Origin: Rhizophagus irregularis
Lineage: Eukaryota
Reading direction: 5' to 3'
DNA length: 64,000 bases
Assembly (NCBI RefSeq): GCF_026210795.1
Contig: NC_089432.1
Coordinates: forward strand, 4,712,001 to 4,776,000
Part shown: piece after piece, positions 27,580-52,300 of the stretch
How positions within the stretch are numbered: position 1 is the first letter of the stretch
How the letters are laid out: the number at the start of each line of letters is the position of its first letter
Position numbers and translations under genes: made by a program
Notes under the pieces: model-generated
What the model was told of the DNA's origin: nothing
The model's input: the letters and a program-made list of their open reading frames with translations, nothing else
The model's database searches: none

Positions 27580-27684
27580 CTAATCATTGTTTGTTTTTAA
27601 AAAAAATTTATAGTTTTTTTTAAGTGATATTTGATATTATACATTTAAAAGAAATTGTTCTTTATTTATTCTTTTTAGATTTAT

Positions 27685-27747
27685 TTAAACACTAAGACTA
27701 GAGTAGTAAAATATTTTACAAGTTTCTTAGTTTGTAATTTAAATAAA
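27685..27747 (+). repeat. Conserved kinase 3'-UTR element (copy 2), stem-loop forming
   Basis: ACTAAGA...GTAAAATATTTTAC...TCTTAGT nested inverted repeat, ~105 bp downstream of the kinase stop. Confidence 0.7.
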
Positions 27748-30700: not shown

Positions 30701-31354
30701 TAAAGATTTTTTTTTAAACATACATTTAGTTATTCATAATATAATATGGTCAACTATAATAAGCTTACTATATTTATATTTTTTAGTCACAATGCTGGAA
30801 AAATTCATACCGTCATGAGTGTTACATTATTTTAAAATGTCAAATCTTAGGATCCAGCATGAACTTTTCAGGGCCGGAATCATGATAATGTTGGCTAGTA
30901 TTTAAAAAGGCAATGAAACTCTAGCCGGCACTATCTAAAAAGGAAAGATCTACATGAATTTTTTGGCTGCTAAACTCAAATCTATGTATTTTTCAGGGTT
31001 CTAGACCTATAAATTATTAATCAAGATTCCTGTCACTATTAATAATTGATTAATTGGCTATATTTAATCAAATATTATTACAAATTCATTAAGTATTTCT
31101 CCTGTAATTAAAATTTATGGGTTTTTATTTATTAGTTTACCTTTATTTAATCAAGTAATCTGCATTTATAAAATGTGAATCAAACATCTGTTATTAAATT
31201 TTAATTACTTTCTCTTGAAATGAATATAAAAACTTTATATCATGTCATTCATTTTAATTATTTTATAGTACATTTGTAATTGTTTTATTTATATAATTAT
31301 ATTATTATTTTGATAATTATATCTAATAATTGGAAAATTTATAAAAAAAAAGAT

Positions 31355-31670
31355 TTATTTAGATTACAAACTAAGAAACTTGCAAAAATATTTACTACTT
31401 TAGTCTTAGTGTTTAAATAATTCTAAGTAAAATAAAAAGGAGAATATAAATATTTAATACTTGGATAAACTATAAAAAAAAAAAGGAATTATTTAAATTA
31501 CAAACTAAGAATCTTGTAAAATTATTTTTACTACTCTAGCCTTAGTGTTTAAATAAATCTAAGCAACAATTTCTGTTAGATGCATCATGACATCAAATAT
31601 CATTTAAAAAAAACTATAAATTCTTATAAAAATACAAATAATTAGTTATTTTTTATGGTATCAACATATC
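31355..31670 (-). repeat. Two orphan copies of the kinase 3'-UTR element (remnant of paralogous kinase 3' ends)
   Basis: 31360-31425 and 31490-31560 match the element. The reverse complement of 31560-31670 also resembles 27555-27660 (last exon plus UTR of kinase 2). Confidence 0.7.
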
Positions 31671-32889
31671 AACAAGGTCTTCAATATAAATAGAGGCGAA
31701 TAATAGCAAAATAGCAATATAATAGACTGATGTCCACAAGTGTACTAATCAAACTAAGTTATATTAATTTAATATTTTAATGGACCTACCACCCTAAGAG
31801 TCTAAGACAATAAATTATCACGTCATTTTAATATATTAATTCACATTACTGTTTATATTAAGATTAGAATAAAATAAATTTCATTAATTTTAACAATGCA
31901 TGGTGATTTAACATTATTATGATGTAATAAAATGATCATGATAAAGAAAATGTGTCTTCGCGGTACAGTAATTACAGTAATTATAGCCGATTACAAGTTT
32001 TGAACTACCATTTATTCTCTTATCAATCCGAATTTTCCTGTAATCATATCAATAATCAAATTATCTGATAAATTTCCGAATTTCTTTCTAGGTAGTTTTC
32101 ATTTATTATATCATTTGTATGATTCTTTGCCGAAGCCTAGATTCTGGGAAAAAAATACCAATAACATCTTCCTCCGGCCTGCTTTTCTCTCATGGAAGTA
32201 CGCCTCCAGCACTTGTACCTTCATATTTTTAATCTCATTGCGCAGTTGCAGATTAGCCATAATTTTAAGACGTTAAGCTTACTTTTAACCCGATGATTGA
32301 TCTCCTCTTCATGATTGCAAATAGAAGAAGAATATCAGAAGTAATTGCTTTGTAGTCGGTATCAGATTCCTGAAAAGAAACAGAATCTTGTGTCTGTGTC
32401 TCTTTACCAGTAACATATACGCCGGGGATTTGTAAAAATTTTCCGTTATCCTAAGCATCTGATCACTATACTAAATTACTTGTGCAAGAAAAAAAAAAGA
32501 TCAGTAATGCATACTGCAATTAAAACTTCGCACATGCGTTTAAAAATTCGAAATAAAGCTTTTTATTATATTTTTGTAAGATAATACATGATAAATAAGC
32601 TGGTTTGAAATGTTGATATCTGTTATTCAATCTTTAAACTTTATATTGAGGATCAAGCATCAAATACTATAAAATTTCTTCTTGGGAATTTAAAATAAAA
32701 TGAATTAAAAGAACTATTCAACGAAATGGTCTAGATTGTTTGCAATTTCTACTGTGCTTTGTTCTTGGTTTATCAATCTTACAACTACTTGGTTGTTAAA
32801 AGTGATTTCGTAATTTGTAGGATAATTGATGATAAAGTCCCCGAACGGATTATTATGGAGAAATACTGGCGCCACTGGTCTATTTCTGG

Positions 32890-33492
32890 TGTAATGCCGT
32901 AGTATATCTAGTAAATTTATTAATTGTGAGGCGCAGTATTATATTTAGTCTTAGTGTATAAAATTTTAACTTATTTTTATTTTTATTTTAATTGGACCGA
33001 GAAGTCGTTAAACTAATAATCACATGGATTAAGGTAATTGGTCCGTGATGACCTTAAACTATTAGTCACGAGATTTAAGGATAAATGAAGATCCGAAAGA
33101 TACTAAATTGAATGAAATCAAGTGATCTGAGATGTCAAGTGAGTAATTTGTTGATCACTACGTTAATATTATAAATCATAATTCAGGAGTTTATGATGAT
33201 CAAATGGATACAAAATTAAGATAATGGAAATACTTTAAAACAATGGAAATACTTTAATAATTTAAATCCATGAATTGAAATTATGAATTTAGTTACACAA
33301 GAACAAACATAAAAGGGCGTGAAGATCACCTTTTGAGAGAAAAGGAGACGAATTTTGTTATGAATTATTTATTTTATCATTTAATGTTATTAAACCAAGC
33401 ATATTATTGTATTTATTTATATTATTAATAAAGAGTCATTTTGTTAATACCTGAGGTGGCAAACATAATTCTCTATGGGCTCAGGTGTTACA
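32890..33492 (+). repeat. 5' LTR
   Basis: TGTAATGCCG...GGTGTTACA; no differences from the 3' LTR seen by eye. Confidence 0.97.
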
Positions 33493-33494
33493 AG

Positions 33495-33512
33495 TGGTGC
33501 ATGCTCCGAGAA
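33495..33512 (+). promoter_or_regulatory. Primer binding site, inferred tRNA-Gly
   Basis: TGGTGCATGCTCCGAGAA, 2 nt after the LTR. Its reverse complement TTCTCGGAGCATGCA-CCA is a canonical 18-nt tRNA 3' end with a GCATGC-type acceptor stem. Confidence 0.85.
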
Positions 33513-34083
33513 AGGAAAAGTGATCATCCTCACATGATCACTGCAGGTTATAAGTACAGGATCTCTGAGAAAAGAAAATGATCACCCCACGTGATCATTA
33601 GAAGTTACAAATAAAGGATCGACGAAGTTAAGGAATTATAAAATTAAAAGTTCTAAGTCTTGGTTGGAAAGAATTTAAGGTGTATTGATGTTAAATTTTA
33701 ATAAAATAAAGTCAAATATTTTAAAGGATACGTGAAAATAATGGTTACCAATGTAAAAAGTATTAATTTGGGTAAGTATGACCATAAATGTATGAAGAAA
33801 TAATGTTAAAAACTAAATTTTTGATCTAACTTGACCACCGGCTGATAAGTCAATGAAAAATTATTATTATAATAATTTTCATACATATGAACCAAATATG
33901 TATGGTAGTAATTGATTATCAAGGGAAATGCGAGGCTAATCAAGTTAGAAGGGGTTTAATAAAATATTGTAAATAAGTTCCATGAATTAAGGATTAAAAA
34001 TAATTTTTATAAATAATTGAGGTTAAGTTAAGGATAAAAAAAAGTGTACCCAAAAACCGACACTATAAATACGATGGTAGGGT

Positions 34084-34230
34084 AATTCTGTGTGAACTCA
34101 ATTGAGGTTTTCTGTGTGATCAATTGAGAATAGTTCTGTGTGAGCTTTTTCTGTGTGAACTCAATTGAGGTATTCTGTGTGATCAATTGAGAATAGTTCT
34201 GTGTGAACTTCCAAAAACAATTCTGTGAGG
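34084..34230 (+). repeat. Short tandem repeats (TTCTGTGTGA + TCAATTGAG modules) in the element leader
   Basis: About seven TTCTGTGTGA motifs with palindromic TCAATTGA spacers. Confidence 0.85.
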
Positions 34231-34343
34231 GTACCCAAGAAGAATCATGATTAACGTTAACGAAAATAAAAATAATATTTGCTGGACAAATATATTCAAG
34301 GAAAGTTATAAAAAGGTGAGGAATTCGATCTCTCACCCATAAA

Positions 34344-35027
34344 ATGGAATACAAAATCAATTTAACAAAAGAGGATTCAGAAAAATATTTGTGTAAAGGA
34401 AAAGGAATTAAATTAAAAATTTATAATGAAGATAATAAGGCCATCAGTCTAAAGACCATCTATGATGTTAGACCACCCAAAAAGAAAAAAAAGAGATGTT
34501 TGACCTGTGATGATAGAGAACATGTGAAAAGGACCAAAAGTGAGAATAAAGTGGAAAGATTTATAAATGAATTGTTGACACCGGTAAATGTGGAAGACCT
34601 ATTGATACCAGAAATACAAAATGTAGAAATTCATGATGTTGAAAAATTAGTAGAAAGATACATCAGTCTTGGAAATACAAATGGTAAAAACATCTTAATA
34701 TGGTACAATATTGGACAAATTTTTGAACGAGAAATTAAAGCAAGAATAAATCAAACAAAGCCAGACCAGACAGCTAGAGAAGAATTATATGATGAAATGA
34801 TGGAATTTATAGTTAATGAAAGTACTGATGAAAAACAAAAGAAGAAGGAAGCATTAAGGAAAAGGATGCAAGGAGCTATAAAAATATATAAACTTTTTAC
34901 TGAAATTGGTCAAGATAAGATATATAGAGTAAAGGAAACATTTGTAACGACTATTATAAAATTGACAAATCCGGAAATACAACAAATAATCGGACAAATC
35001 AAATATGGATTCACACTCCAACCTTAG
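34344..35027 (+). CDS. Extra 5' ORF of the retrotransposon, 227 aa, unknown function
   Basis: Intact ORF between PBS and gag with an NLS-like PPKKKKKR, a CxxC and a helical C-terminal region (ALRKRMQGAIKIYKLF..IG.DKI.RVK). Confidence 0.75.
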   Translation: MEYKINLTKEDSEKYLCKGKGIKLKIYNEDNKAISLKTIYDVRPPKKKKKRCLTCDDREHVKRTKSENKVERFINELLTPVNVEDLLIPEIQNVEIHDVEKLVERYISLGNTNGKNILIWYNIGQIFEREIKARINQTKPDQTAREELYDEMMEFIVNESTDEKQKKKEALRKRMQGAIKIYKLFTEIGQDKIYRVKETFVTTIIKLTNPEIQQIIGQIKYGFTLQP

Positions 35028-35193
35028 GTTGGGAATTTTAAGGAAAAATATAAATTTATTTGTACAAACCTGTAAACTACCATACTCAGTAATGAACAAA
35101 TGAGGTAAAGGCAAGCCCAGTATAGGTCAAATAAAATATAAAAGAAGGATAAAAAGTAAAAGACGTGAAAATTTTTAGAGAATTTTATTAAAA

Positions 35194-38100
35194 ATGGAAT
35201 GGTACCATGTTTGGAACGCTGGATATATAAACCATAAACAAGAACATGACCTAGGAGTGATAGAGCCAGAGGAATGTTTAGCATGTGAAATATGTAATCC
35301 AATAGAAAGAGAAGTATCAGCAGCATTCAAGAAATTTTGGGATGCTTTATTTAAATTCGAGGATACAATACTAATGTACAATAATGTGACACATAAAGAA
35401 TTATTGAATTTATTAAGTATGGACAATAGAGAAAGGGAGGATACAATACATAAAGGAAAATGTAGGAATATAGTAGATAGAATAATTGAATCAATAAGGT
35501 ACAGACAACAACCAAAAATGAAGGAAAAAGGATTGAGAATAATAATTGTAGTAATTGTAAGGGATTGTATTGAAGGAAACTTGGAAAATGAAGTATTTGA
35601 TCGATTGATAGGATGTCCAGAAATAATGAAACATGGATACATTTTAGAAGATTGGGATGTTGAAAATAGATTTCAAAAATTTTGGGATTGGTATAACACG
35701 ATATTGGAAAATGAAATGAAAGCAATACATGTTAAGAAGTTAGCAATAAAGTTATTCAGGGATTTATTATATGAAGAAACAGAAGATCTGTTGAGGAGTG
35801 AAAAGGTAGTTGAATTAATACTCCAGATAGAACATCAGAATAGATGTGAGGTAGACACTCAAGAAGGAAAGGATGCATGGAAGAGATTGATGCAGAAAGT
35901 AGGACAAAGATTTATTGACACCAAACAATTTACAAGGGAACCTGAGGACCCAGAAAGTGATAGTCCTGAAAGTTATGAATTAGAGGACAGTGATGGTAGT
36001 ATACATTATGAAATAAAAATAGAGGATGATGTCGAATGGACAGTAGAATCATTAAAAAGAAAAATTGAAGAAATGGGTGGAAGGTTCACTGACAAAGATA
36101 TACAAAGGATGTGGGACCTAAGGATAAGGATAGAATTGATATTAACAGAGGACTTTTTAGGTACATTTTTCGAATTAATGAGACTAAGTGATGAAAAATT
36201 AAAAGATGAAATAAATGAATGGTTAACAAAAGAAACATTAATATGTGGAAATTGTAGGAATAGAAAGTTACCTGATATGATAGCAGACATTGGACAATGT
36301 AAAAATTGTGAACAAAAAGAATTATTAGAATTAAAGGATGACTTAGAAAAACTAGGATACGAATTAAATGTGTCAGAAATAGAGAGAATAAGAAAATTCA
36401 GGATAAGCAATAGTATAATATTAACAACGGAATTTATGGAAAAATATTTTCAGGAAATTGATACGAATGACAAAGAATTAAGGACAAAATTATATGAATG
36501 GATAAATGAAAATACCACATTTTGTGATGAATGTGGAATAAGATGGATGAACAATAAATTTGACGAAGGAAAAACCAAGTGTAGGGATTGTGAAAATGAT
36601 GAAAATGAAATTGATATCAGGGTCAAAAGATTAAAACAAATATGTGATGATAATAAAATAGAAATAACTAATGGAGAGCTATTGAGGTTAATCAGTATGG
36701 GATATACTGATGGAGAAATACTGGATCAAGAATTTATTGAAATATTTCAAGGAAATAAAAATGATTTGGAGAAAAATTTAAGGCGGATATTAGATAAATT
36801 TCTAAAACAGCAAGCTGGAATTGAGGATAGTGAAAGTAGTGGAAATGAATCTGATAATGAAAAATCGGATGGATTTGAAAAAGAATCAGATGGATCTGAA
36901 AAAAATGGAGAAATTTTAAATCCAAATGATACCGATAGCAATGAAAATTTTGAAGAACCTTATGAAGAAAACATTATAAATAGACCTGGTTTTGACTCAA
37001 GTGAAAGTTCAGAATCAAACTCTGAAGATAAAAGTGAAATATCTGATTATAATATAGAAAATTTATTTGAAACATCTTTAACACCACCGATACCACCAAT
37101 CCTACCAATAGTACCAATAATTATGGGAGCAACAAGAGCTGAAGTAAGGGAAGATTTTAGAGCGGCTTTACTAGCAGCAACAGGACATGACATAGGAGGT
37201 AATTGGGCAGGATTAGTCGCAGCCAACCCATTAGCAAATGCAATTGAGGATGCAGGAAATGTAGCTGGAGGAATAATTAGTATGCCACAATTTTATGGAA
37301 GGGAAGAAGAAGACATAAACGATTGGGTAAGACAATTTGAAACAGCATTTACTGCCATAGGAAAAGCAGCAGGAGCAAATGGAGCTAGACAAGCAGCAAT
37401 GGCAGCTACCTGTTTGAAAGGTGCAGCAGCACAATGGTATAATGAAAAGAAGGAAGCAAACAATGGTCATTTGGTAAATTGGCAAGATAACGATAATGAT
37501 AATGATTTAAAACATAGGATTAAACAAAGATTTACCAGGGAAGATGTTAGAAAAAGGAAAATGTTAGAATTAAGGAAAATAACACAAGGAGTAAATGAAA
37601 ATGTTGAGGCATATACGATAAGGTTTAGACAAATATTAAGGATAGCTACCAGAGGCCATGCATTAGATGATGAATTACAAGTGGATAATTATATCGAAGG
37701 ATTAACACCAACATTGGGATATCAAGTCAGAAGACAAAACCCAGCAAATTTAAATGATGCAGTGAATACAGCAAGAAGAGAGGAGGAAGCTACTAATGAA
37801 TTAATAAGAAAGACACATGGTATATCAGTTAGTACCCAAAGAAAAGGAATCGATATACAAGATGACAAACCAAAGAATATATTTGAAAAACCATTGGAGA
37901 AAAATTATGAGGATGACCTTGCCGACATGTTTAAAAAATTAGAGGTAAAACTAGTAAATCAACTTGGAGGGCAAAAGAGACCACCAAACAATAATAATAG
38001 ACAAGGACCACCACCTCGAGCATGTTATAATTGTAAACAACCAGGACATTATGCAAATGAATGTAGGGTAAATAATGGTCAAAGAAACTATGGAAGACCA

Positions 38101-38781
38101 AATAATCAAAATTATAATAGAAGATCAAATAACTATAATGGAAGACCAAACAACTATAACAGACCACCAAACCACCAAAACAATAATCGAGGATTCAATG
38201 TAGTGGAATATGATAATTATAATGACCAATATGACCAATATGATTATGATAGTCAGGATTATCAGGATAATTATGACCAAGGATATAGTTATGACGACCC
38301 GTATTATCAAGATAATGATGTAACATTTAACCATGTTGATCAAGATTTTTATATTGGTGAAAGACAAACGAGAAGTAACATAAAAAATAGGTCAAGTAAT
38401 CGAGATGTAGATATGGAAATTGACCAAGAACAAGCACGAAGAAGGAATAATAAATATGCAAGCCAAGAGGAAAGGGCAGCAGCATTACCAAAAAGAGGAT
38501 TCACTGATGAAAGTCTGAAAAAAGCACAAGAAGCAAGGAGAAATAATAATACATGTGGAAATTGTGGACAAAGAGGTCACTATGCAAAACAATGTAAAAA
38601 TGAACGTGTTGAAGGTATTCATAGGACAAGCGCATTTCAAAGAAATATACCAAAATATAACGTATTAGAGGATATGAAAAGTACCAGAGCAAATGCAACT
38701 TTTTCACAAATTATAGATATGAGCCCAGAACAAAGAAAAATATATTATGATGGTATGAGAAGGTATCCACAAACAGATTGA
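35194..38781 (+). CDS. gag: Gag polyprotein with ~640-aa N-terminal extension
   Basis: Capsid-like MPQFYGREEEDINDWVRQFE...LKGAAAQWY...QGVNENVEAYTIRF, plus two CCHC knuckles (CYNCKQPGHYANEC, CGNCGQRGHYAKQC). Confidence 0.92.
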   Translation: MEWYHVWNAGYINHKQEHDLGVIEPEECLACEICNPIEREVSAAFKKFWDALFKFEDTILMYNNVTHKELLNLLSMDNREREDTIHKGKCRNIVDRIIESIRYRQQPKMKEKGLRIIIVVIVRDCIEGNLENEVFDRLIGCPEIMKHGYILEDWDVENRFQKFWDWYNTILENEMKAIHVKKLAIKLFRDLLYEETEDLLRSEKVVELILQIEHQNRCEVDTQEGKDAWKRLMQKVGQRFIDTKQFTREPEDPESDSPESYELEDSDGSIHYEIKIEDDVEWTVESLKRKIEEMGGRFTDKDIQRMWDLRIRIELILTEDFLGTFFELMRLSDEKLKDEINEWLTKETLICGNCRNRKLPDMIADIGQCKNCEQKELLELKDDLEKLGYELNVSEIERIRKFRISNSIILTTEFMEKYFQEIDTNDKELRTKLYEWINENTTFCDECGIRWMNNKFDEGKTKCRDCENDENEIDIRVKRLKQICDDNKIEITNGELLRLISMGYTDGEILDQEFIEIFQGNKNDLEKNLRRILDKFLKQQAGIEDSESSGNESDNEKSDGFEKESDGSEKNGEILNPNDTDSNENFEEPYEENIINRPGFDSSESSESNSEDKSEISDYNIENLFETSLTPPIPPILPIVPIIMGATRAEVREDFRAALLAATGHDIGGNWAGLVAANPLANAIEDAGNVAGGIISMPQFYGREEEDINDWVRQFETAFTAIGKAAGANGARQAAMAATCLKGAAAQWYNEKKEANNGHLVNWQDNDNDNDLKHRIKQRFTREDVRKRKMLELRKITQGVNENVEAYTIRFRQILRIATRGHALDDELQVDNYIEGLTPTLGYQVRRQNPANLNDAVNTARREEEATNELIRKTHGISVSTQRKGIDIQDDKPKNIFEKPLEKNYEDDLADMFKKLEVKLVNQLGGQKRPPNNNNRQGPPPRACYNCKQPGHYANECRVNNGQRNYGRPNNQNYNRRSNNYNGRPNNYNRPPNHQNNNRGFNVVEYDNYNDQYDQYDYDSQDYQDNYDQGYSYDDPYYQDNDVTFNHVDQDFYIGERQTRSNIKNRSSNRDVDMEIDQEQARRRNNKYASQEERAAALPKRGFTDESLKKAQEARRNNNTCGNCGQRGHYAKQCKNERVEGIHRTSAFQRNIPKYNVLEDMKSTRANATFSQIIDMSPEQRKIYYDGMRRYPQTD

Positions 38782-39321
38782 CTACAAGAATCAATGAACA
38801 ACATTGAAGCAGAACATTTAACTGCATTAAGAGGTAAATTAATAATAAACCAAGAATTAAAGGACGTAATGTTTGATACAGGAGCAGCAGTAAATGTAAT
38901 AACTAGTCAGATAATGGATGAAATGGACCTAAAAATTGAGGAACCAAGTACAGTAAGATGTGTGATGATAAATGAGGATAAATTAGCATCTAGGGGTACC
39001 ACGACAATATACATACAATTTGGGGATAAGGAGATACCCATTAAGGTTGAAGTAATTGATTCAGGAAAAAACGAAATTGTGTTAGGAAATGGAGTATTAG
39101 ATATGTTTAAGGCGAATATAGATTACACGGATAAAACAATAATAATTAGAATGAATGATGAAACTATGGATATACCAGTAAAATACACACAAAGGACCAT
39201 TAAAGGGTTTGAAGAAACATTTGATGAAGAGGAAATATTGGAGGAATTATACCAGGATGAATTGTATAACATATATGAAGATGACCATGAAGGTCAGGAA
39301 GATGAAAATTTTAAAGTATAA
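38782..39321 (+). CDS. Retroviral-type aspartic protease
   Basis: VMFDTGAAVNVI catalytic motif and IVLGN motif. In frame with gag after a single TGA. Confidence 0.92.
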   Translation, partial: LQESMNNIEAEHLTALRGKLIINQELKDVMFDTGAAVNVITSQIMDEMDLKIEEPSTVRCVMINEDKLASRGTTTIYIQFGDKEIPIKVEVIDSGKNEIVLGNGVLDMFKANIDYTDKTIIIRMNDETMDIPVKYTQRTIKGFEETFDEEEILEELYQDELYNIYEDDHEGQEDENFKV

Positions 39322-40796
39322 GTCTTGGTCAGAATGATACTGAAGAGACGATAAAGAAGCACAAAAGTGACCATGAAAAATTTACTGAAAAATTTAAAGT
39401 AGGGGACATAACCAATGAACAAAAAGGTAAATTAAAGGTATTAGTAGAAAAATATAAGGACATATTTGAGTACGATGGTGAAAAATATAACAGGACAAAC
39501 TTAGTAAAACATGAAATCAGATTAAAAGGGGGTACTGAACCAATAGCCCAAAAGAGGTACAAAGAAAATGATGAAAAAGGTAAATTCATCAGAAAAGAGG
39601 TTGAAGAAATGTTAAAAATGGGAAAAATTAGAGAATCTAGAAGTCCATGGTCTTCACCAGTGACTCTAGCAGGGAAAAAGTCGGGAAATTATAGATTTTG
39701 CATCGACTATAGAAAATTAAATAAAGTTACAATAACAGATGCATATCCATTACCGAGGATTGATGAACAATTAGAAAGGATAAGTTCAGGAAAATGGTTT
39801 ACCAGTCTAGATTTAGCATCAGGGTTTAATCAGATAGAAATGGCTGAGGAAGATATTGAGAAAACAGCATTCATATGCTCAGCAGGATTATATGAATATA
39901 ATGTCATGCCATTTGGGTTAACAAATGCACCTGCAAGTTTTCAAAGGTTAATGGATAAAGTATTAAAGGAATACCTAAATGAATTTGTGATAGTATACAT
40001 TGATGATATAATGATATATTCGAAAAATTTTGAAGACCACCTAAAACACATAAAGTTAGTGTTAGAAAAATTAAAGGAAGCCAGTTTAATACTAAAGTTA
40101 AAGAAATGTATATTTGGAAAAACAGAAATAGAATTTTTAGGACATGTAGTCGGTAAAAATGGATTAAAACCAAGTCCAGGAAAGGTTGAAAAGATACAAA
40201 AATTAACAGCACCTATAAATATAAAAGGTGTAAGGTCAATATTGGGGTTATGTACGTATTATAGAAAATTTATTAAAGATTTTTCAAAAATAGTAAAACC
40301 AATAACATCTTTATTGAGAAAAGATGAAAAGTTTGAATGGGGCATCAAACAACATGAAGCATTAGAAATATTAAAAAGGAAATTAACCGAAGAACCGGTG
40401 TTAAGACAACCAGATTGGTTAAGGAAATTTATATTAATTACAGATGCTTCAGGAATAGGATTAGGGGCAGTGTTAGCTCAAAAAGATGATAAAGGTCAAG
40501 AATATGTAATAGAATATGCCAGTAAAAGTTTAAACAGGACAGAACAAAGATGGCCAATAACCGAACAAGAATGTTATGCAATTGTATGGGGAATACAACA
40601 TTTCCATAAATACTTGATCAATAGAAAATTTGAGGTAGTAACAGACCATGCAGCTTTGAAGGGATTAATGACTGCAAAAGTACCAAAAGGAAAGAGATCA
40701 AGATGGGTCATGGAATTGGAACAGTATGATTTTGAAATAACCCATAGACCAGGAAAAGAAAATAAAAATGCAGATGCCTTATCAAGAATAATATAA
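39315..40796 (+). CDS. pol: Reverse transcriptase + RNase H
   Basis: Frame open from 39315. Motifs SPWSSP, RFCIDYRKLN, LDLASGF, MPFGL, YIDD, TDAS, TDH, NADALSR; ends at TAA 40796. Confidence 0.95.
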   Translation, partial: SISLGQNDTEETIKKHKSDHEKFTEKFKVGDITNEQKGKLKVLVEKYKDIFEYDGEKYNRTNLVKHEIRLKGGTEPIAQKRYKENDEKGKFIRKEVEEMLKMGKIRESRSPWSSPVTLAGKKSGNYRFCIDYRKLNKVTITDAYPLPRIDEQLERISSGKWFTSLDLASGFNQIEMAEEDIEKTAFICSAGLYEYNVMPFGLTNAPASFQRLMDKVLKEYLNEFVIVYIDDIMIYSKNFEDHLKHIKLVLEKLKEASLILKLKKCIFGKTEIEFLGHVVGKNGLKPSPGKVEKIQKLTAPINIKGVRSILGLCTYYRKFIKDFSKIVKPITSLLRKDEKFEWGIKQHEALEILKRKLTEEPVLRQPDWLRKFILITDASGIGLGAVLAQKDDKGQEYVIEYASKSLNRTEQRWPITEQECYAIVWGIQHFHKYLINRKFEVVTDHAALKGLMTAKVPKGKRSRWVMELEQYDFEITHRPGKENKNADALSRII

Positions 40797-40832
40797 ATAG
40801 ATGGGTAAAAGAGTCACTTTTCAAAAATAAAA

Positions 40833-41096
40833 ATGGAACAAGTGGTAAGAAATACAAATCATAAAATAAAGGATATAATCGAAAATTTAGAAGGTATAAC
40901 AAAGGAATTAAACAGGATAAATTATAACTATAAATTCAAAGCCAAAAATTTTGAAGATAGTGAAGAAAGACCATTAATATTGGAAACTCAAGAGGAAATA
41001 TTACAAATAGAGGTGATATTAAGTAAAGTAAACAAGCTAAAATTATCAGAATTATGTAAAAATGGGACCCAAAATAATAATCATATGTGGAGTTGA
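40833..41096 (+). CDS. Small 87-aa coiled-coil-like ORF between RH and IN
   Basis: ATG-initiated ORF with heptad-like I/L spacing; overlaps the start of the kinase-integrase ORF. Confidence 0.45.
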   Translation: MEQVVRNTNHKIKDIIENLEGITKELNRINYNYKFKAKNFEDSEERPLILETQEEILQIEVILSKVNKLKLSELCKNGTQNNNHMWS

Positions 41097-42843
41097 TGGT
41101 ACTGGAAAAACATTCATTGTAAATAAACTTATAAAAGAATTTGAAAAAGTAGGACAAAGTGTGAGGTTTAACACCTTTAAAAGGAGAAGAGAGGACAATG
41201 ATAAGTATAAAATACCAAAGAAAGGTATAGAATGGGAATTCAGGAAGGAAGTTGTCGAACAAATCAACAGGAGAATGGAAGAACATGATAATGAGGATTG
41301 GTTAATATTAGATAAAAGTCCCTATAGTGAGTACTTTTATCAACAAACACCATCATTCGACAGAGGATACATAACAAGATATGAGAACCACCTATTAGAA
41401 AAGGAAGTATTTAGGAACAAAAGGATAATTGATGAATCAATAGTGATATTTTTAGAAAATGAAAAATGTTGGGAAAATTACAAAGGTAGAGAATATTCGA
41501 AAAAGGATCAAGGACATAAAACATCATATCCATTATTAGATGAAGAAAGATATATGGAGATGGTGAAATCATTTAAAGAATGTCAAGATATTTACGAAGG
41601 AGAAAAATATGCTAATATTAAAATATCAAATAATGACACAGATTGGGAAAGAGTATATAATAAAATAATAGAATTAGATGGAGATAAACCACCAATAGAG
41701 GTTAAAAATGTTGAGATTAAGGATAACATCAGAGTAACTGATGGTAAAAAGCATATTGAGAAAAATGGTAAAAACATCAGAATAATAGAAGACTTTGAAA
41801 AGATGGGAGCACTATATTTAGCTCACAGTCATGAATTATCGGCACATATGGGAATCAAAAGTACTTATGATAATTTAAAAGATAAATATTATTGGGAAAA
41901 CATGCTGAATGATGTTGAAAGATATGTAAGGACATGTGATGAATGTCAAAGAAGAGGAAAACCACAAGGGAAAAATGAATTACACCCAATTAAAGTAGTA
42001 GAACCATGGTATCAAATCGGGATTGACTTTGTTGGACCATTGAACACAACAACAAATGGTAATAAATACATCATAGTAGCAATGGATTATTTTACAAAAT
42101 GGCCAGAAGCCAAAGCAGTAAAAGAAGCAACTGCCAAAGAAGTATCAAAATTTATTTATGAAGACATCATTTGTAGACATGGATGTCCAATGAAAATATT
42201 GAGTGATAGAGGAAGTCATTTCAATAATGAAATGATTAAGGAATTAATGGAAAAATTCAAAATTAAATGGAATTTTTCTACAAGTTATCATCCAGAGACA
42301 AACGGACTTGTTGAAAGATTCAACCGAACATTAGGTCAAGCATTAGCAAAATTATCAACCAAAGATGATTGGGATCAAAGGATAGCACCCATATTATTTG
42401 CTTACCGAAATAAAAAGCATAGTTCAACAAGAATTCGACCATTTTATTTAACATACGGAAGAAATGTACGGACAATAATGGATGAAAATATCAAAGAAAT
42501 TAACCTAAGTGATAGAATAGTTGGATTATTAGAGGAACTACCAAGAATCCGACATGAAGCCAAAGAACAAATACTGAAATCTCAAACAAAACAAAAAGAG
42601 TATCATGACAGAAAAATAATCAAAGAACACACCTTTGGAATTGGAGATAAAATACTACTCTATGATAAAGCCAAAGCACAACAACTATCGGGAAAATTAG
42701 AATCAAAATGGTTGGGACCATTTTACATTCATGAAATACTACCGAATGGAGCTTATAGAATTAAAAATATTAAAGGTGTCATCAAGAAGATACCTGTAAA
42801 TGGAGAATTATTAAAGACTTACCATACACCGATGAGTAAATGA
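41062..42843 (+). CDS. dNMP (thymidylate)-kinase-like domain fused to DDE integrase
   Basis: The N-terminal ~205 aa carry the IIIICGVDGTGKT P-loop and LILDKSPYSEYFYQ (TMK DRxxxSxxxYQ-like). Then follow HHCC (AH..AH...CDEC), the IDFVGP / LSDRGSHF / NGLVERFN core and a WLGPF (GPY/F) motif. Confidence 0.9.
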   Translation: MGPKIIIICGVDGTGKTFIVNKLIKEFEKVGQSVRFNTFKRRREDNDKYKIPKKGIEWEFRKEVVEQINRRMEEHDNEDWLILDKSPYSEYFYQQTPSFDRGYITRYENHLLEKEVFRNKRIIDESIVIFLENEKCWENYKGREYSKKDQGHKTSYPLLDEERYMEMVKSFKECQDIYEGEKYANIKISNNDTDWERVYNKIIELDGDKPPIEVKNVEIKDNIRVTDGKKHIEKNGKNIRIIEDFEKMGALYLAHSHELSAHMGIKSTYDNLKDKYYWENMLNDVERYVRTCDECQRRGKPQGKNELHPIKVVEPWYQIGIDFVGPLNTTTNGNKYIIVAMDYFTKWPEAKAVKEATAKEVSKFIYEDIICRHGCPMKILSDRGSHFNNEMIKELMEKFKIKWNFSTSYHPETNGLVERFNRTLGQALAKLSTKDDWDQRIAPILFAYRNKKHSSTRIRPFYLTYGRNVRTIMDENIKEINLSDRIVGLLEELPRIRHEAKEQILKSQTKQKEYHDRKIIKEHTFGIGDKILLYDKAKAQQLSGKLESKWLGPFYIHEILPNGAYRIKNIKGVIKKIPVNGELLKTYHTPMSK

Positions 42844-43075
42844 TAACTATCATCAATGGACTTAGAAAAATAAAGATAATTTATAATCATGTGAAATAAA
42901 ATCACATGACATAAAAATAATTTTCGAAAATAGGAAAAACTAATGAAAATTTCCTAAGAAAGACCGAAGTGAAATCCGGTACAGGAAAACCGTAGACTTA
43001 ACAAACACATGATAAACCGCAGATGTAGACGCAGCAAAAAGGAATATTTAAAACGCAGCTGAGTCAAGTGACAAT

Positions 43076-43145
43076 GCATGTTTGATTTAGTGGTATAATT
43101 CGCACCTACCACTTCGAGACACGAGTTCGATTCTTAGAATAAATT
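43076..43145 (+). tRNA. Degenerate tRNA-Gly-like sequence inside the retrotransposon 3' UTR
   Basis: GCATGTT TG ATTT AGTGGTA TAAT T CGCAC CTACCAC TTCG AGAC ACGAG TTCGATT CTTAG AATAAAT has tRNA-Gly(GCC) layout, with A-box and B-box retained and stems decayed. Confidence 0.7.
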
Positions 43146-43168
43146 TAATGTGGGCATTAAATTTTTAT

Positions 43169-43180
43169 GCGGGGGATAGT
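43169..43180 (+). promoter_or_regulatory. Polypurine tract
   Basis: GCGGGGGATAGT immediately before the 3' LTR. Confidence 0.8.
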
Positions 43181-43783
43181 TGTAATGCCGTAGTATATCT
43201 AGTAAATTTATTAATTGTGAGGCGCAGTATTATATTTAGTCTTAGTGTATAAAATTTTAACTTATTTTTATTTTTATTTTAATTGGACCGAGAAGTCGTT
43301 AAACTAATAATCACATGGATTAAGGTAATTGGTCCGTGATGACCTTAAACTATTAGTCACGAGATTTAAGGATAAATGAAGATCCGAAAGATACTAAATT
43401 GAATGAAATCAAGTGATCTGAGATGTCAAGTGAGTAATTTGTTGATCACTACGTTAATATTATAAATCATAATTCAGGAGTTTATGATGATCAAATGGAT
43501 ACAAAATTAAGATAATGGAAATACTTTAAAACAATGGAAATACTTTAATAATTTAAATCCATGAATTGAAATTATGAATTTAGTTACACAAGAACAAACA
43601 TAAAAGGGCGTGAAGATCACCTTTTGAGAGAAAAGGAGACGAATTTTGTTATGAATTATTTATTTTATCATTTAATGTTATTAAACCAAGCATATTATTG
43701 TATTTATTTATATTATTAATAAAGAGTCATTTTGTTAATACCTGAGGTGGCAAACATAATTCTCTATGGGCTCAGGTGTTACA
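43181..43783 (+). repeat. 3' LTR
   Basis: 603-bp direct repeat of 32890-33492. Confidence 0.97.
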
Positions 43784-44616
43784 CTGGTGACATCTGTTAC
43801 GGTAATCCCGGCTGGGATCCGGATGTCATTTGGTGGATTTGCGTTGTCCGTAAAGTATATTCTTCCGTTTGGAGACCCAAGAGAGCCTATTCTTAAAACG
43901 ACGTTTCCACCGAGGTCAACACAACATGTGTTGGTATTTATATACGAGAACAAACCGGCGAATCTCATTGTAATATCTGTTTTCATTTTGGTATAAAGTA
44001 GACAGATAACGTGTGAAAGTTAAGTATTTTTTTTTTCGCTATAATTATGTAGATCACAAAGAACAATTAACTGACTGTTCGCCATCGTCCGTCACTTGAA
44101 TACTACGATCAAAGAGTTAGTTCTTACCGTGTTTTTTTCTTGGTAACAAGTTAATGAAATATTTCAACGAAAAATAAAGTAAAGAAGAACAGCGTTGGTA
44201 ATAATTGTTTGTTGAAACTTTTTTTTTTTTTTTTAAAAAAAAAACTGTAACGCATCTTTATTAGGATTTATTTATAAAATATATGGTCCTAGCTATAAGA
44301 TACTTAGAGCCAAACGTGCCAAACACGTTAACCCTATAACAGAGTTTACTGTTTGTTGAAACTTTAAAGGTATCTAAGTATGTATATAAATGATTTAATA
44401 ATTATGAGATTATAGTGATGTAAAGCGGAACCTAAAAAGGAAATAAAATTCCGGTAGAAATGATACATATATATTTCTGGTAATAAAATTCTTAATGTTC
44501 AGGACTTGTAACAATAGAAAAAAAAAATTAAAAAATTTACGCACTTTTCCAAGAAAAATTTTTATTAATACATGCGAAAATAAATACAGGATCCGGGACG
44601 TAGCCCGCAATACATA

Positions 44617-45205: not shown

Positions 45206-46335
45206 GGTATTAAATTACTCGAATCAAATTAAGAAATTTAGGATTTTTTACTGGGAAGAATGTCCCAAATATCCCAATTCACGGTAATTAAAGAATTACT
45301 ATACAGGTTTACCCAATGAGATATACACAAATGAGATTATAGAATTAAAAAAAAAGTAGGATCTCATGATGTGAAAGATATTTCCAATTAATTTGTTCGA
45401 AACTAGGAACAAACAAGGTTTTAAATATCGTAAACATAAGAATGTGAAATTTTATGAAATTTTCGCGTACTATCACATAATAATTCAACTTTTGCACCAT
45501 AAAGCTTATTTGTACGTTCGGACGTACGTCCTTATATTTGAATTTTGAGTACGTACGTTTAAAATCTAATACTAAAATTTGAAATATTTTCGTACTACTT
45601 TAAATTTCGTAACAACTTTGAACTTTCGTACCACATCACCCTCAACTTTTAGTTATGCAGAAGTTATTTCTTCCGTGAGGAATTATTTTTGAAGACTTTA
45701 TAAAAGCAGGAGAGGAAGCCGAAGCAAAGTTCCTAGAGTGTTAGGATTATTTAAGGGATAACAAAATTAATGAAGAATGAAGAAAATATATTATCCTCCA
45801 ATCTAGCGCAACTCCAAGAAAGGAAAGAGAAAATATTCATAGCATATTATTCATTCTCGCAAATTCGATAATTCGATCAATGTAAAATTATTAGTACGGA
45901 AAATCAGTTTATTTTTAAAGATCCGCTGAGTACGGAAAATTGAAATTCTTTTTTTTTAGCGTCCGGACTCCGGACTAATTTGTATTATCACTCCCTTCTG
46001 TACATGAATTTTTTATTTTTGATTTCGTTATTATGGAACTTATAAAGTTAAAAACGTTGTACAGTACTGATAAATCTAACCAACTTTGCAATAGCTTCTC
46101 TTGGTATATGATCTGACCTAGAATATTAAGAAAACAAATATAGGGTTTGTCTTTTCGTATACTCAACAACATTATAACAAAGAATTCATGGTTTCTCGAA
46201 TTGAAACATAGTTAAAAGCCAAGATTTTAATATTTATATATAATTGTAAAAAAACTAATTTTTTGTGATATGGTCTAAAACTACTACTATACTACTATAA
46301 ATTTTTTTTTAAAAAAAAGTAATAAATAAGGATTT

Positions 46336-49300
46336 CTACATGTTGTCAATAAATTCATCAGGCTTTCTTCTGCCAGGTTTTGCCTGTTTAGCCGGTTTAG
46401 CCTGCTTAGCCTTGGCCTGTTTGGCCTGCTGTTTGGTCCTCGTTTTCTAAAATTTGAAGTATATTCATTAATTGAAACTAAAAAAAAAGTTATATAATTA
46501 TTAAATTTTCTTACCTTAATAATGAATGTATAAGCTTCATATGTATTAGCCACTAACAAATTTTTCGGAAATAATTTGTTAATAAGTTCTTCTGGAATTG
46601 TAGACGGCCAAAAATTTAATGTATTATTATCTCGTAAATAATGATATAACGGTTCCTTTTCTTTTTGATTTTCTAAAGTTAAATATCGTAACATGAATCG
46701 TTTTAAAGCTAAAGCGAACGCTTCTGCTGGTATGGCTTTTTTCATTGTAGTTTGCTGTTCAAAATCTACGGAATTCGTTATTGCCATCTTCATATCTGCT
46801 GAAAGTTCTTCCTTATATTTTTCATGAATATATTTAATTTTAACATCGGCAACTTGTTCTTCGACGAGTTCGTATAAAGAAACTAAATGTTTAAGTCGTA
46901 AATCCACTTTTAACATTTTAGAAAATCTTTCATGTTCATTTAATGATGATAATTTCATCCACTGTGAAACATAATTTTTAATTGATTTTTCTCCATCTCC
47001 AACTGCAGTACGTTTGACGAAACATAAAAGAATCTCCAATGATGATAAAATTTCTGACGCGTTATCTAGAGCTGGTTCCAATGCAGGTTGCAATCCAGAA
47101 TTTTTAGAAAAACCTAATAAATCCACCTTTTCAATTGGAATTGGTTCCTGATTTATTAAATCCTTAATATCACTTAGAATTCTCATATGTCCTTGGAATA
47201 ACTCCAAATGATATGGGAAAACTTCTAGATATAATTGTGAACCTGGTTGAGTTTCTATATAAACTTTTTCAAATACTAAAATACTTGCCAATTCCATCTC
47301 AATTTTTGTCAAATCATAAACAATATCTTCTCCTCTAGCAATTGCTAAATTTCTTTGACTATATGCAAGAATTCTATCATTCCACTTAAAATTTATGATA
47401 TTAACGGAACGAACTTGATCAAGATACATCGATTGAAGGCAATATCCATTGGGTGTTTCCGGTTTTGTTTTTGATATTGACGATCCAAAACCAAATGAAG
47501 GTTCATCTAAAAATTTGAGAGATTTACAAGTTCCAGGTGGAATTTCAATGACTTCTTGTAAGAATTTATTTTGTATATTAACTAAATGGTATAAAATTGC
47601 GCATAAGTAAATTCCTGAATCTTTTTGTTCCACTAAACCAAGAACAACTGGTGAATCATCTTTAATGGTTGGCTTATTATCGGGAAGTTGATACCGATCT
47701 ACGAGAGATATTACTGTATTCCAACCAAGTTTAAAGTCGTCAAAAGCTGTTTTCAAGCTATTGAAAATTTCTTTATTACCACCACTATTTAATTCTATAA
47801 ATTTCCTGAAAGTCATTTCTCCTGCAGTTTGTCTTGCTAACTGATATCCAAGTTTGGAATGCAAAATTTGAACAAACTTTACTATAGGTAAAAGATGTTC
47901 GAGTAATTCTAATTCTTGAGTATATTTCAAAAATACTGAGAGGAATGGATAATCGTTATTTCTTGTCGTATCGCTCATATAATAAGCGCGGAAACTGTTG
48001 AAACTAATCATTCCAATCGTTCTCCACAAGTTTGGTAAATTTTCACTTCGATATCGTTGATCCATAACTAAAGTTTGATTGATTTCACTTTCAATTAAGT
48101 TACCTTTTTGATTTTTGTTTCGAGATTCGCTTAATTTTTCACGATAATTAGTTGCCGTTTCATTTATATTTTTAATTTGCGGTGTGATATAATCATTGAA
48201 TTCTGTTTCCCACTTTTCACGCTCGGCAGATGTTGTTACTCGTTGATTCGATAATGGTTTTTCCATCATCGAAGAAATTAATGAATGGAACATTAACGCC
48301 AAATTCTGATTAGAATTAAAAATTGACTATTAGTTTATAATCTACTTTAATAAGATAAAAAATATATATATAATATAAATATAAAATATACCTCATCTGA
48401 GCAATTAAGAAGGGTTTTCAGCATTTCCCAATCATTTCGAATATGGTCCATACAATAATTTTCAGAATCTGTGGCAGTTTGATCATTTTTTTGAAGGAAG
48501 GCAAGGGCAGTTTGAGGTGCAGAGGCTCCAATAAGAGCATGAACAATTAAATGTAAAACACGATATGATGTAGGCGTCATATATCTGACAGAGTGATACA
48601 AATTTTGATTAGCTAGTTCTCCAATGTATCCTGTTTGATCGTTTGCTGATTGAGCAATTGGTTTATTATCGAGTATAGTGTTTCCTTCTGCTGGTTTATG
48701 ACCCACTCCGCTGATAGTATTTCCACACTCCGGACATTTACTAGTAATAACAGTTCCACCACAATTTGCGATGAAATATTTATATCCGCACTTACAAACA
48801 TATCTTGTAAGTTTGTTTGTATTTGTTTTTCCAGCAACGGCGTTTAACACCGTTGATTTTACGTCAGACATGCATGATAAAATAAACGAGTTCTGACAAT
48901 CTAGTAATTTGTGTAAATACATTGCTAATTGAGATGAATTCGGTTCAACCGATGCGTGAAATATGATGATATGAGCAATAACGGATTTTATAAGCAATTC
49001 AGTATTATTAATTTCCGGGCTATCAATTTTAAGGAGAGGTTGTTTATTCGACAAGATATTTGTTGCAATTGGTTTAAGTAAATCTGGAAGATTTATTCCA
49101 TCGAGTTCTTGTGTCAAGAATTTTTCTGATCGCTCTTCTGAATGTTGCCATTCTCTTGAAGCTCTCAAAGCATGAAGACGTACAAAGAAAAGCCCCGTTA
49201 AAGATAATTTTGCCGTTAAAGTCATATTTTGATTCATGTTTTGGACAAATTTTTGAAAAGGTGCCTTATTTCCTACACTATAGAAATCCATAATACTATT

Positions 49301-52300
49301 TTCAGCTACATTATATTCAGGTAAATAACAATATGGATTAAATGACAATCGATTTTCTTTAATCTCATCCCAATTGAAAGATCCAAGCCACGGTAAAAGA
49401 TGTTTCTGAGCGTCACAAAATCTTCTAATATCATCCATTGAAAAATCTCTTCGACATAAATCTCTTAAAAAGTAAATTTTGAAAGAATCAATCAAAGGAT
49501 GAACGAATGTCAAAATATTGTTAATTTGACCAATTAATTCATTAGTAACAAAATCGTTATCAAGATCGTTATCAAAATCGTCTTCCTCCATTTGGTCAGG
49601 ATCATTATTATCTTTCCTAATAAAACTGTCCCAGAATCGACGAACGAATTCTTTAAGTAAAGCAATAGAAGTTATTTTTTGTAATGATGGTATTCCTTTT
49701 TTATATAAAGCTTCAAGAGCCGGTCCAATATAAGCCCCTAAACTTTCTAATTCTTCATTCATGAAGAAGGTCTGTTCAATGGTATCACAACACAAAGTAG
49801 CCATATTTGTATCTAAATCTCCTAAACATTTATTGATAATATTTAATCGAGGAGATTGTATTAAAGCTTCTTCGAAATCTGTAATTACTAAAAAGAACAT
49901 ATCTCTGTCTTCTTTAAGAAAGATTCTTTCGATGATTGCACCCATTAATGGAAAAGGTTCTTTCGAGAATAATTTCTCATATAAACTTAGTCGGACTTCT
50001 GATTCTATTGGAATCAATGCAAGGCATCTCATGATGAATGATCTTCTTGGAATTATATTCTTCTCATTTTGTTCTAATTTATCTAGCTTATTAAGTACGG
50101 TGCTGACAAATTTCTCTGAGAGAACTCCTTGTTCATCCGAACTTAACACAAGTTGAACAATTTCTCTAATACTATCTAAAGGAATGGATTTTGTCGCAAC
50201 TAAATCGTTTACAATACGTAACAATTGAAGATCTGGTAAATTCTTTGCTCGCGTCACCTTACTAACAAGAGATAATATTTTTGTGACGTCATGTTGCCAT
50301 TTATCAATCGAATGAGAATTTCCTGCGCCTTCGAAATTTCCACGAATTTGCTCCAACATCAATTTTATCAATTCTTTGACAAGATGGTTTTCAAAATTTC
50401 CTCCAGCAGTAACATTTCCTTGAATTTCGATATTTTCAATTATCATTGGAGACATTTGAGCCAATTGTAATTGAGCTAAAACTTCGTTGCCATTTTCCCA
50501 CCAATATGCATGAAGCAAAATTGGTTTGCGTGTTTTATCACCGATGAGTAACTTCAAGATTGACGCTAACATTTTTTTATTCTTTGTTTCACCATCTTTT
50601 GACGCAATAATAGTAACAAAGTCATTGAAATATAGTTCAGAAGCCCATTCCCATTCGAATGGAGAATCTTTTTCTTTTAATAGCGGTATTGACGTAAGAA
50701 TATTATCTTTGAATTCTTTCAAATGATCCTCAATCACGTAATCGTATAGTTCATTGGTTTCTTCATCAATTCTCTCATTATCTTCTTGTAATTTAGCTAT
50801 TTCTTCTTCGTAAATTCTTTTAAAACTATTAATTTGGTTCATAAAATATAATGAAAAAGGGAATTCAAGATCAAGTAAACTTCCTGCCGGCATATTATAT
50901 CCATCAAGTTCTGGATTTTGCGTATTTTCAATTTTGACAATTTTCTTATCCATATAAACCTGTTCCCAAAACTTAAGTAATTTCACATAGTTTCCTTTTG
51001 ATCTTGCTCGTTCATTAATATAGAAAAATGTTTTTGTTGCTGATAATCTTTCCAAAGCACATAAAATTTGAGCTATCGGCTTCTTAAACAGTGTTCTAAT
51101 GTGAGTTTGTAGTGCTGCAGAAAATGAAGGGTATGGGTATAAATTTTGTTTATTTGATGCGACTTTATATTGCCAATCATTTGTAGGTTGTTGTTTGATC
51201 CATTCAAGAATTCTTACTTTCAAACATTTAATAAAGTCTTGGCACTTTAGGATTTTTTCGTTTATTGTTCTAAAGAAAAAAGGTTAACAAAAAAATTTTT
51301 TAAAAAAATTATACATTTATGAAGGACAAAAAATCATTACTTTACGCGTTACTTACTTTATATGATTGATTGACTTATCGTTCGATGGATATTTCATACA
51401 TGATAGACACCATAATAGTTCTTGTTGTAAAATTTTTTCAAATGGATAAGTAGAATCAACAATACGAGATAAAGACCCATCCAAGAGACCTGATGTAGGA
51501 ACGTTACTTCCTGATAATGTTTCAATAGTTATTTGTTTCCAGCCGCACATGAAATTAAAAGACGAAAAGGTGGATTCCTGCTCTCGATGAATATGAAGAA
51601 TGATACACGCATGCTTCATAGGTACAATATGCTCCATTTGATCTTTCTTTGCTATAAAGTCTTTTCGGAATTGTTCGATGATTAATTTAGCTAGTTTAAT
51701 ACAACCAGTACTAACAGTAGTTATATCGCATTGGAGGATTAGCATTTGATCATTTGATTCTTCAGACCAAAAGTGTTTTACCTACAATACAGAGTTGTAT
51801 AAGTAACAAGAAAACATGCATTAACTTAATAAATCACCGCTTTTGACTTACCCGATTCGAAAGTTGAGCTTCAGTCTTAAAAATCGACAATTTATCTACT
51901 TGACAACTAAATTTTCGTAAACAAAACATAACATCCGTATTGATATTGGAGAAGGTGTTTATAATTAATAAATGCCCATTAGGAACCGATGATGTTCCTT
52001 GATTATCAAAGTAATCATAAAGACTATCATGATGCTGTTGATTGAAATAAACATGCTTCCATTTTTCAAATTCATCTCGCTCTAAAGCTGATAACTCGGC
52101 TCTCACAACACCATCAGAAGTCGCCGTTGCAATCAAACATTCTTTGCATTTTTCTAATATTTCTTCTTCATCTGCTTCGGGATTATTCTTCATAATGTCG
52201 ATAATTAAACTTTGTAAGGTTTCATTTTTATCAAATCCAATGAATAGATCTTTCTGGGTAAACTTATTACGTGATTGAGTTGCTTGATTATTGTCGATCA

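Follow-up and report, generated by a model that had tools for sequence, protein, structure and literature searches.

The window analysed here is a 64,000-nucleotide stretch of the Rhizophagus irregularis genome (NCBI RefSeq assembly GCF_026210795.1, contig NC_089432.1, positions 4,712,001 to 4,776,000 of the forward strand). At 32890-43783 it carries a 10.9-kb Ty3/Gypsy long terminal repeat (LTR) retrotransposon of the Metaviridae, in which the integrase shares an open reading frame (ORF) with an N-terminal domain predicted to be a P-loop kinase with the fold of thymidylate kinases (TMKs) and deoxynucleoside kinases (dNKs). Our comparison with sister elements indicates that this domain is a real and conserved cargo, of predicted enzymatic kind and apparently undescribed so far, in a family of fungal Ty3/Gypsy elements. 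The parts of the element, including the frame for reverse transcriptase (RT) and RNase H, are as follows, with lengths in amino acids (aa) or codons.

32886..32889, + strand: target-site duplication CTGG, 4 bp, 5' copy
32890..33492, + strand: 5' LTR, 603 bp, TG...CA, with no difference from the 3' LTR
33495..33512, + strand: primer-binding site, beginning TGG, read from the sequence; we take it, by resemblance only, to be of tRNA-Gly type
34344..35027, + strand: ORF0, 227 aa, no Pfam family at cut-off
35194..38781, + strand: Gag, 1195 aa (Pfam), with a capsid domain at aa 729-864, two zinc knuckles and a long N-terminal extension
38794..39321, + strand: aspartic protease in its own ORF, 175 aa
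39315..40796, + strand: RT-RNase H open frame, 493 codons
40833..41096, + strand: accessory ORF, 87 aa, between RT-RNase H and kinase-integrase
41062..42843, + strand: kinase-integrase ORF, ATG start, 593 aa
41062..41685, + strand: kinase domain, aa 1-208, predicted TMK/dNK-type P-loop kinase fold
41089..41112, + strand: P-loop GVDGTGKT, G10-T17
41311..41343, + strand: DKSPYSEYFYQ, residues 84-94, aligning with the TMK DR...S...YQ motif
41488..41493, + strand: R143-E144, predicted lid helix
41686..42843, + strand: integrase, with H255/H262/C292/C295, D322/D382/E418 and a GPF module; best solved match Ty3 Pol
43076..43140, + strand: degenerate tRNA-like stretch in the 3' untranslated region, a resemblance noted by eye
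43171..43179, + strand: polypurine tract, read from the sequence
43181..43783, + strand: 3' LTR, followed by CTGG at 43784-43787

Both 603-bp LTRs are identical along their whole length, end in TG...CA and have CTGG on each outer side. Among solved structures, Ty3 was the best match of both the RT (E 2e-97, against 3e-64 for the next) and the integrase (E 1.4e-30). Gag is followed by protease, RT, RNase H and integrase in that order, but the domains lie in separate ORFs and not in the usual single Pol. As the initial annotation had read it, the RT-RNase H frame stops just after ADALSR (NADALSRII-stop, two residues on, at 40794-40796), and the integrase belongs to a different, ATG-initiated ORF of 593 aa that contains the P-loop and DKSPYSEYFYQ at residues 10-17 and 84-94; the zinc finger and core of the integrase begin at residue 251. 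The 87-aa ORF overlaps this ORF by 35 nt, and sister locus L012 has a weakly similar ORF on the 3' side of its kinase (38% over 29 aa, pairwise E 8e-5). The best database matches of the element protein are 99-100% identical and named Rhizophagus irregularis DAOM 181602. Nine other 593-aa copies occur on nine GenBank contigs of differing size (among 15 listed of a 47-member cluster), differing from the window copy by 1-4 kinase residues, one of them in the P-loop. Public-run contigs, one possibly from the window's own sample, pass ungapped through 39088-41528 and 39708-42103 (the comparison listed 40 of the 199 substitutions). Because of these nine copies and the ungapped contigs across the junctions, an assembly artefact is unlikely.

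Three word-based searches, covering proteins of 326-1038, 114-364 and 110-417 aa, returned 35, 31 and 98 relatives of the domain. The named relatives came from three Glomeraceae species (R. irregularis, R. clarus and Glomus cerebriforme) and the others were metagenome proteins; some already carry the automatic label 'thymidylate kinase', and databases present these element ORFs as host 'thymidylate kinase' or hypothetical genes. From 183 proteins, 177 matched the profile, 137 of which covered at least 150 positions and formed 75 clusters at 90% identity. The flanks were RNase H in 17 clusters, Nudix in nine and integrase in two, with none detected in 47; incomplete gene calls, the trimmed domain from the window itself and P0173, a diverged Nudix fusion, are counted among these 47. 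The two kinase-integrase fusions in the databases (P0011 and P0148) lack the last kinase helix and are probably gene-model joins.

In metagenome DNA, 21 of 24 loci were of Gypsy type, 19 of them with RT-RNase H or integrase adjoining the kinase. RNase H and kinase shared one ORF in 5 of 10 loci, and kinase and integrase in none of the 13 sister loci having both, which confines the integrase fusion to the window's subfamily. The kinase therefore occurs in three layouts: fused to RT-RNase H, as a free ORF or, in the window's subfamily only, fused to integrase, where its last helix takes the place of the sisters' first integrase helix. The fusion described in the initial annotation is thus real in the window but does not represent the family, in which a free ORF or an RT-RNase H fusion is usual. 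As a separate observation, the interval between RNase H and integrase forms an accessory slot with short ORFs in varying order (L012, 1046-1291; L010, 96-389); the slot of L014 (670-1089) holds an F-box ORF above the Pfam cut-off, and a similar ORF occurs in L016 (945-1127).

The domain is under purifying selection in the sister elements. By the Nei-Gojobori method, with pairs that are not independent, the ratio of nonsynonymous to synonymous substitution (dN/dS) of the kinase ranged from 0.04 to 0.24 in those 12 of the 298 pairs whose synonymous divergence (pS) was below 0.45, comprising nine Gypsy-type pairs (0.04-0.19) and three Nudix-type pairs (0.14-0.24). Across unsaturated pairs, the median was 0.18 for the kinase (260 pairs; 38 saturated pairs dropped), 0.19 for the integrase (87 of 91) and 0.16 for the RT (27 of 28). 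The initial annotation had allowed that the domain might turn out unconserved or neutral among related elements; our survey found it conserved. Neutral captured sequence, or an artefact of gene prediction, is hardly credible as an account of the domain: P0011 and P0148 do look like gene-model joins and RNA support is negligible, but frames are open and dN/dS is low among elements whose RTs differ by ~35%, and the window fusion is a single uninterrupted frame. RT and kinase trees (FastTree, midpoint root, without topology test) of the 20 elements with both domains recovered the same three groups for 18 of them, the exceptions being P0016 and P0024, and pairwise identities of the two domains correlated (Spearman 0.59). 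Since the trees largely agree, a single old acquisition followed by mostly vertical descent would fit. A tblastn search of the kinase domain against 50,697 phage records returned nothing, and a phage donor is not supported; viral contigs contained nothing related to the kinase alignment, the RT or the Nudix-kinase, and the only matches in prokaryote genomes were a fragment around the P-loop and, at 29%, an archaeal TMK of the ordinary kind.

Residues of the predicted active site are strongly conserved across the 75 clusters. The P-loop GxDxxGK[ST] is present, with D12 in 71 clusters and K16 in 73; K85 and Y93 occur in all 75, Q94 in 68, and R143 and E144 of the lid in 74 each. The near-invariant set comprises D12, K16, K40, R43, F60, R61, D84, K85, Y88, E90, Y93, R143 and E144. 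In the structure model (pLDDT 84, pTM 0.81), an NMP-kinase fold with a five-stranded core and a lid is predicted. Its top structural matches were human deoxyguanosine kinase (Z 15.2, root-mean-square deviation 3.3, 194 residues aligned) and Staphylococcus aureus TMK (Z 15.2, 3.2, 180 aligned), followed by Giardia dAK (14.9), S. tokodaii ST1543 (13.9), adenylate kinase (13.3), uridylate kinase (12.9), PPK2 (11-12.5) and YorR (12.4). Foldseek concurred, with TM scores of ~0.5-0.65 to TMKs and dNKs among PDB and viral models, and Atlas neighbours were mostly viral clusters (0.95-0.96). An FtsY/SRP identity was tried and rejected, the sequence matches being limited to the P-loop region and no such rows appearing among the top structural matches.

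The best sequence family was phrog_761, 'thymidylate kinase', a set of phage kinases including SPbeta YorR and phage G gp315 (E 9.6e-13 over aa 3-196; 28 of 29 members match). The same profile scores YorR at E 1.3e-36 and also matches in 14 of 14 control genomes; YorR-like proteins differ from the domain in keeping DR, and no close phage protein was found. Profile alignment reached 95.9% with TMKs (31 of 34 loci parsed), with the P-loop Asp, F/R and D-[RK]...S...YQ lining up, against 95.8% with YorR-like proteins (8 sequences), 75.9% with the dNK family (22 of 25 parsed, a narrow acidobacterial set) and 35% with PPK2 (14 sequences). The unpublished genome G086 underlies none of our conclusions. 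With thymidylate kinases (PF02223, TIGR00041) the domain shares the fold, the GxDxxGK[ST] P-loop, the S...YQ spacing after the Walker-B Asp and the lid Arg; it differs in having DK for DR and no Glu-Pro after strand 2, in scoring below curated cut-offs and in its 12-18% identity to solved TMKs. Profile searches thus assigned no other P-loop family, and the kinase-motif match proposed in the initial annotation holds for the TMK/dNK fold group; for TMKs proper it is not supported, as the motif reads DK and the Pfam and NCBIfam TMK cut-offs are missed.

We consider it somewhat probable that the domain phosphorylates deoxynucleoside monophosphates (dNMPs) to diphosphates (dNDPs) with ATP. A larger dNDP pool would then top up the precursors for cDNA synthesis or for repair at the integration site, a role analogous to that of retroelement dUTPases, and a host NDP kinase would still be required to reach triphosphates (dNTPs). 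Action inside the particle, which the initial annotation envisaged, is conjectural. Fusion to RT or integrase would tether the kinase to the nucleoprotein complex, and strict tethering may not be required, since sister elements have the kinase as a free ORF. We infer catalysis, the dNMP acceptor and a benefit to replication from the predicted fold together with the observed position, presence, selection and residues. Several results weigh against this proposal. The arginine of the TMK DR motif is replaced by lysine in 75 of 75 clusters, whereas the motif, where found, always has R in the references (23 of 31 TMKs and 5 of 8 YorR-like proteins; the rest unmatched), and the accessible part of PMC12995831 calls this arginine essential for TMK catalysis. 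The domain lacks the TMK glutamate after strand 2 and carries additional basic residues in its acceptor lobe. Curated cut-offs are missed (Pfam PF02223, 18.3-21.5 of 27 bits; TIGR00041, 21.5 of 83.25), and once the first 30 columns are removed, no reference family aligns above 1%. Structurally, dNKs tie with TMKs and lead for the Nudix-fused form. Synonymous divergence is near saturation on the window's own lineage (pS 0.58-0.80), too high for a dN/dS estimate there, and RNA reads over the kinase are near zero (depth 0.49, one bin, one of four runs). Finally, raised dNTPs in yeast were not accompanied by a marked increase in Ty1 cDNA (PMC3002893). Because the arginine is always lysine and the curated cut-offs are missed, we file the domain as a predicted TMK/dNK-fold kinase rather than as a thymidylate kinase, a name that serves here as a fold label only.

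The structural tie raises the alternative that the domain is a salvage kinase converting deoxynucleosides to dNMPs, which we regard as unlikely though worth keeping in view. To our knowledge, most fungi lack a deoxynucleoside salvage kinase step. Deoxyguanosine kinase shares the top Z and Giardia dAK follows closely at 14.9, the top six Foldseek rows of the Nudix-fused form are dAK/dCK, and S86 and E90 occupy the sites of S and D in the dNK motif, which is of ERSxxSD type. Pfam dNK (PF01712) picks up only 3 of the 29 members at E 0.001; the best score against it, 26 of 27 bits, is that of a Nudix-fused member. Deoxynucleoside kinases (dGK, dCK, dAK) are therefore tied or leading as structural matches, but their P-loop type differs, the P-loop Asp of the domain being TMK-type in 71 of 75 clusters, and their profile match is weaker. 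They also have a catalytic Glu after strand 2, whereas position 37 of the alignment is N in 66 of 75 clusters and D in 8, so no conserved dNK-type Glu is found.

The basic residues bear on a further alternative. These fungi store much polyphosphate, and an exapted TMK-fold enzyme regenerating (d)NTPs from it, like archaeal PPK3, would be a rather more doubtful but coherent identity. Ten positions (K40, R42, R43, R61, R70, R71, K85, R118, K120 and R143) carry a basic residue in 90% of clusters or more, whereas the TMK set has four comparably basic positions if the P-loop lysine is not counted, and the match to ST1543 (Z 13.9) involves a protein that we take to be STK_15430, a cPPK3 homologue. 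The low GC of the genome, however, inflates Lys, and the basic residues, counted by column, may not form one cleft; TMK and dNK score higher structurally, and the profile match is 35% for PPK2 and 52% for the single PPK3-like candidate, from G001. PPK3 itself (Saci_2019/2020) shares the TMK fold, an altered acceptor site and basic residues with our domain, yet it is heteromeric, with an active subunit that keeps the DR arginine, whereas the element encodes no partner paralogue; no specific sequence link between the two was found. In the sections of PMC12995831 available, PPK3 is described as a TMK-fold enzyme misannotated as TMK, with a basic cleft in place of the dTMP-binding residues.

A deeper branch of the family, at 35-42% identity, has the kinase fused behind a Nudix domain nearest NUDT15/MutT (E 2.5e-7 to 3.5e-7), a partner that points to nucleotide metabolism. 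The model of this form (pLDDT 71) leans to dAK/dCK. Its loci (L022, L023 and L024; P0034, P0161 and relatives) have tightly packed ORFs and represent a probable second mobile element; in L023 the kinase is followed by a Mrr-type nuclease ORF, a 285-aa ORF without Pfam match and a Gag-like zinc-knuckle ORF, and no RT was seen in the available contigs. Phage records gave one chance match to the Nudix-kinase (E 6). Pyrophosphatases are associated with kinases of this kind elsewhere too: a baculovirus entry named dUTPase was among the fold matches (rank 44), and in phage Eden a dUTPase adjoins the kinase. Descent of the Gypsy kinase domain from a Nudix-kinase fusion is weakly supported. The idea that many free kinases have a Nudix remnant in their 50-aa leader is likewise weakly supported (P 0.023, probability 2%; rough motif in 33 of 54).

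Such fusions, found in ten clusters, could instead mean that the domain is a kinase for a modified or damaged nucleotide, working with or descended from a Nudix partner and shaping cDNA bases for sanitising or counter-defence. The nearest described family includes phage YorR, phage gene clusters for base modification are reported to contain YorR- or TMK-like kinases (PMC13326640), and the invariant DK change suggests altered specificity. We nevertheless judge this role improbable: the element encodes no modifying enzyme by Pfam, and the Gypsy-linked forms have no Nudix domain.

The element is also unusual in how pol is divided. Protease, RT-RNase H and integrase each occupy their own ORF, and the same layout is present in L011, the sole sister locus spanning protease to integrase. 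Gag ends in TGA-CTA-CA in frame with the protease ORF, both in the window (38779-38796) and in L011 (372-401); TGA-CTA is a readthrough context, which suggests stop readthrough into the protease. The RT frame opens at 39315, and its first in-frame ATG lies at 39609, after 98 codons without one, whereas similarity to Ty3 RT begins already at codon 44. Comparison of the protease/RT junctions (window 39312-39609, L011 887-926, L018 40-170) showed AAGTCTTGG in all three, together with a retained SLG...ETxK-like stretch in the RT frame; the AAGTCTTGG motif is also found at 33655, in the leader of the element. A short ATG frame at 39373 contains two A-AAT-TTA heptamers and could slip into the RT frame.

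Because no ATG precedes the conserved part of the RT in its frame, the identical LTRs do not imply autonomy of this copy. They indicate a recent insertion, as the initial annotation supposed, but its further step to transposition competence does not follow, as competence depends on how the ATG-less RT frame is expressed. Four RNA runs (three polyA runs from two samples and one doubtful run) placed 88, 114, 87 and 16 reads, mostly in the LTR, on the 11.3 kb mapped, and these few reads showed no splice joints; a public-run search listed no RNA runs carrying element sequence. The split pol raises the question of how RT and integrase are synthesised and packaged without a Gag-Pol polyprotein.

This need for a means to load RT and integrase, together with the basic surface, is what speaks for a weak or dead nucleotide- or RNA-binding module that would aid, for example, the packaging or translation of the separate proteins; loss of the DR arginine also marks the inactive PPK3 subunit (PMC12995831, in the part available). 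We hold such a module to be improbable as well, since D12, G15, K16, T/S17, D84 and the lid R143 are near-invariant, which is an active-site pattern, and lysine for arginine keeps the charge. A broader scenario would join a polycistronic-pol lineage with a swappable pre-integrase slot, a new TMK-fold branch taken from another mobile element's Nudix-kinase and dNTPs drawn from fungal polyphosphate; as a whole, it is speculative and rather doubtful.

Large DNA viruses and phages routinely encode nucleotide kinases. For LTR retroelements, the nucleotide enzyme that we found reported is dUTPase. It is described in Ty3/Gypsy elements of fungi (Postia, Phanerochaete, Tuber), bdelloid rotifers (Juno/Vesta/TelKA) and a planarian (Burro), and in retroviruses; it likewise sits in or beside pol, at varying positions that in retroviruses include the one between RT and integrase (accessible parts of PMC2864245 and PMC5408684 for fungal and rotifer elements, and of these and PMC6431247 for retroviruses). 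The cargo here is a P-loop kinase and not a pyrophosphatase, and the pol is split into separate ORFs. Orchid Gypsy elements bearing AlkB (PMC9289625) are another case of a Gypsy lineage in which an accessory ORF encoding an enzyme is fixed and conserved; that cargo is a host-derived RNA demethylase with demonstrated activity, whereas our kinase is known from sequence and a model.

The initial annotation doubted that the kinase was standard Ty3/Gypsy cargo, and the full-text literature indeed yielded no description of kinase cargo in LTR retrotransposons, though supplements, Repbase or subscription journals may hold a mention. Papers pairing retrotransposon with thymidylate kinase contained, in their accessible parts, none on such cargo. 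In the text available, 'thymidylate' has 0 occurrences in PMC8647823, PMC11952901, PMC11075540 and PMC6416283, and 'kinase' 0 in PMC3248453, PMC6431247, PMC9289625, PMC5408684 and PMC10886601; parts of PMC2864245, PMC8776046, PMC13326640 and bioRxiv 10.1101/2023.09.13.557621 were also covered. Retention of the kinase across the family suggests that retrotransposition in these fungi is limited by the supply of precursors, which the small soluble domain could be used to test. With its invariant DK motif, the domain marks out a branch of the TMK/dNK group that is so far uncharacterised.

Further observations concern other parts of the element. Its leader contains a tandem duplication of 62 nt (97%) at 34086-34210. 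In Gag, the capsid domain is preceded by ~700 aa (35194-37300) that contain several CxxC pairs and match no Pfam family; in L011, sequence homologous to this extension resumes after the 3' LTR, which suggests tandem elements there. The tRNA-like stretch at 43076-43140, in sense orientation just 5' of the polypurine tract, has a start that fits the tRNA implied by the primer-binding site; ARAGORN and Rfam made no call on it, and it folds no better than shuffles (z -0.97). At ~4245-4300 of L011, the GAGTTCGATTC motif recurs in the region matching this stretch.

Elsewhere in the window, protein kinase domains of a kind expanded in these fungi lie at 7815-8612 (- strand) and 26584-27498 (+ strand). 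Inverted arms of 275 nt (93%), made of 182-nt repeats, occupy 16618-17224, and an AT-rich satellite array of ~100-nt units with higher-order repeats extends over 22895-26133. Inverted repeats of 94 nt at 27665-27758 and 31343-31436, with 3.6 kb between them, are possibly the ends of a DNA transposon, and related sequence occurs at 6715-6825. On the minus strand, 46287-62954 holds a multi-exon gene of very large size, whose RZ-type zinc finger and weak AAA-type match would make it RNF213-like.

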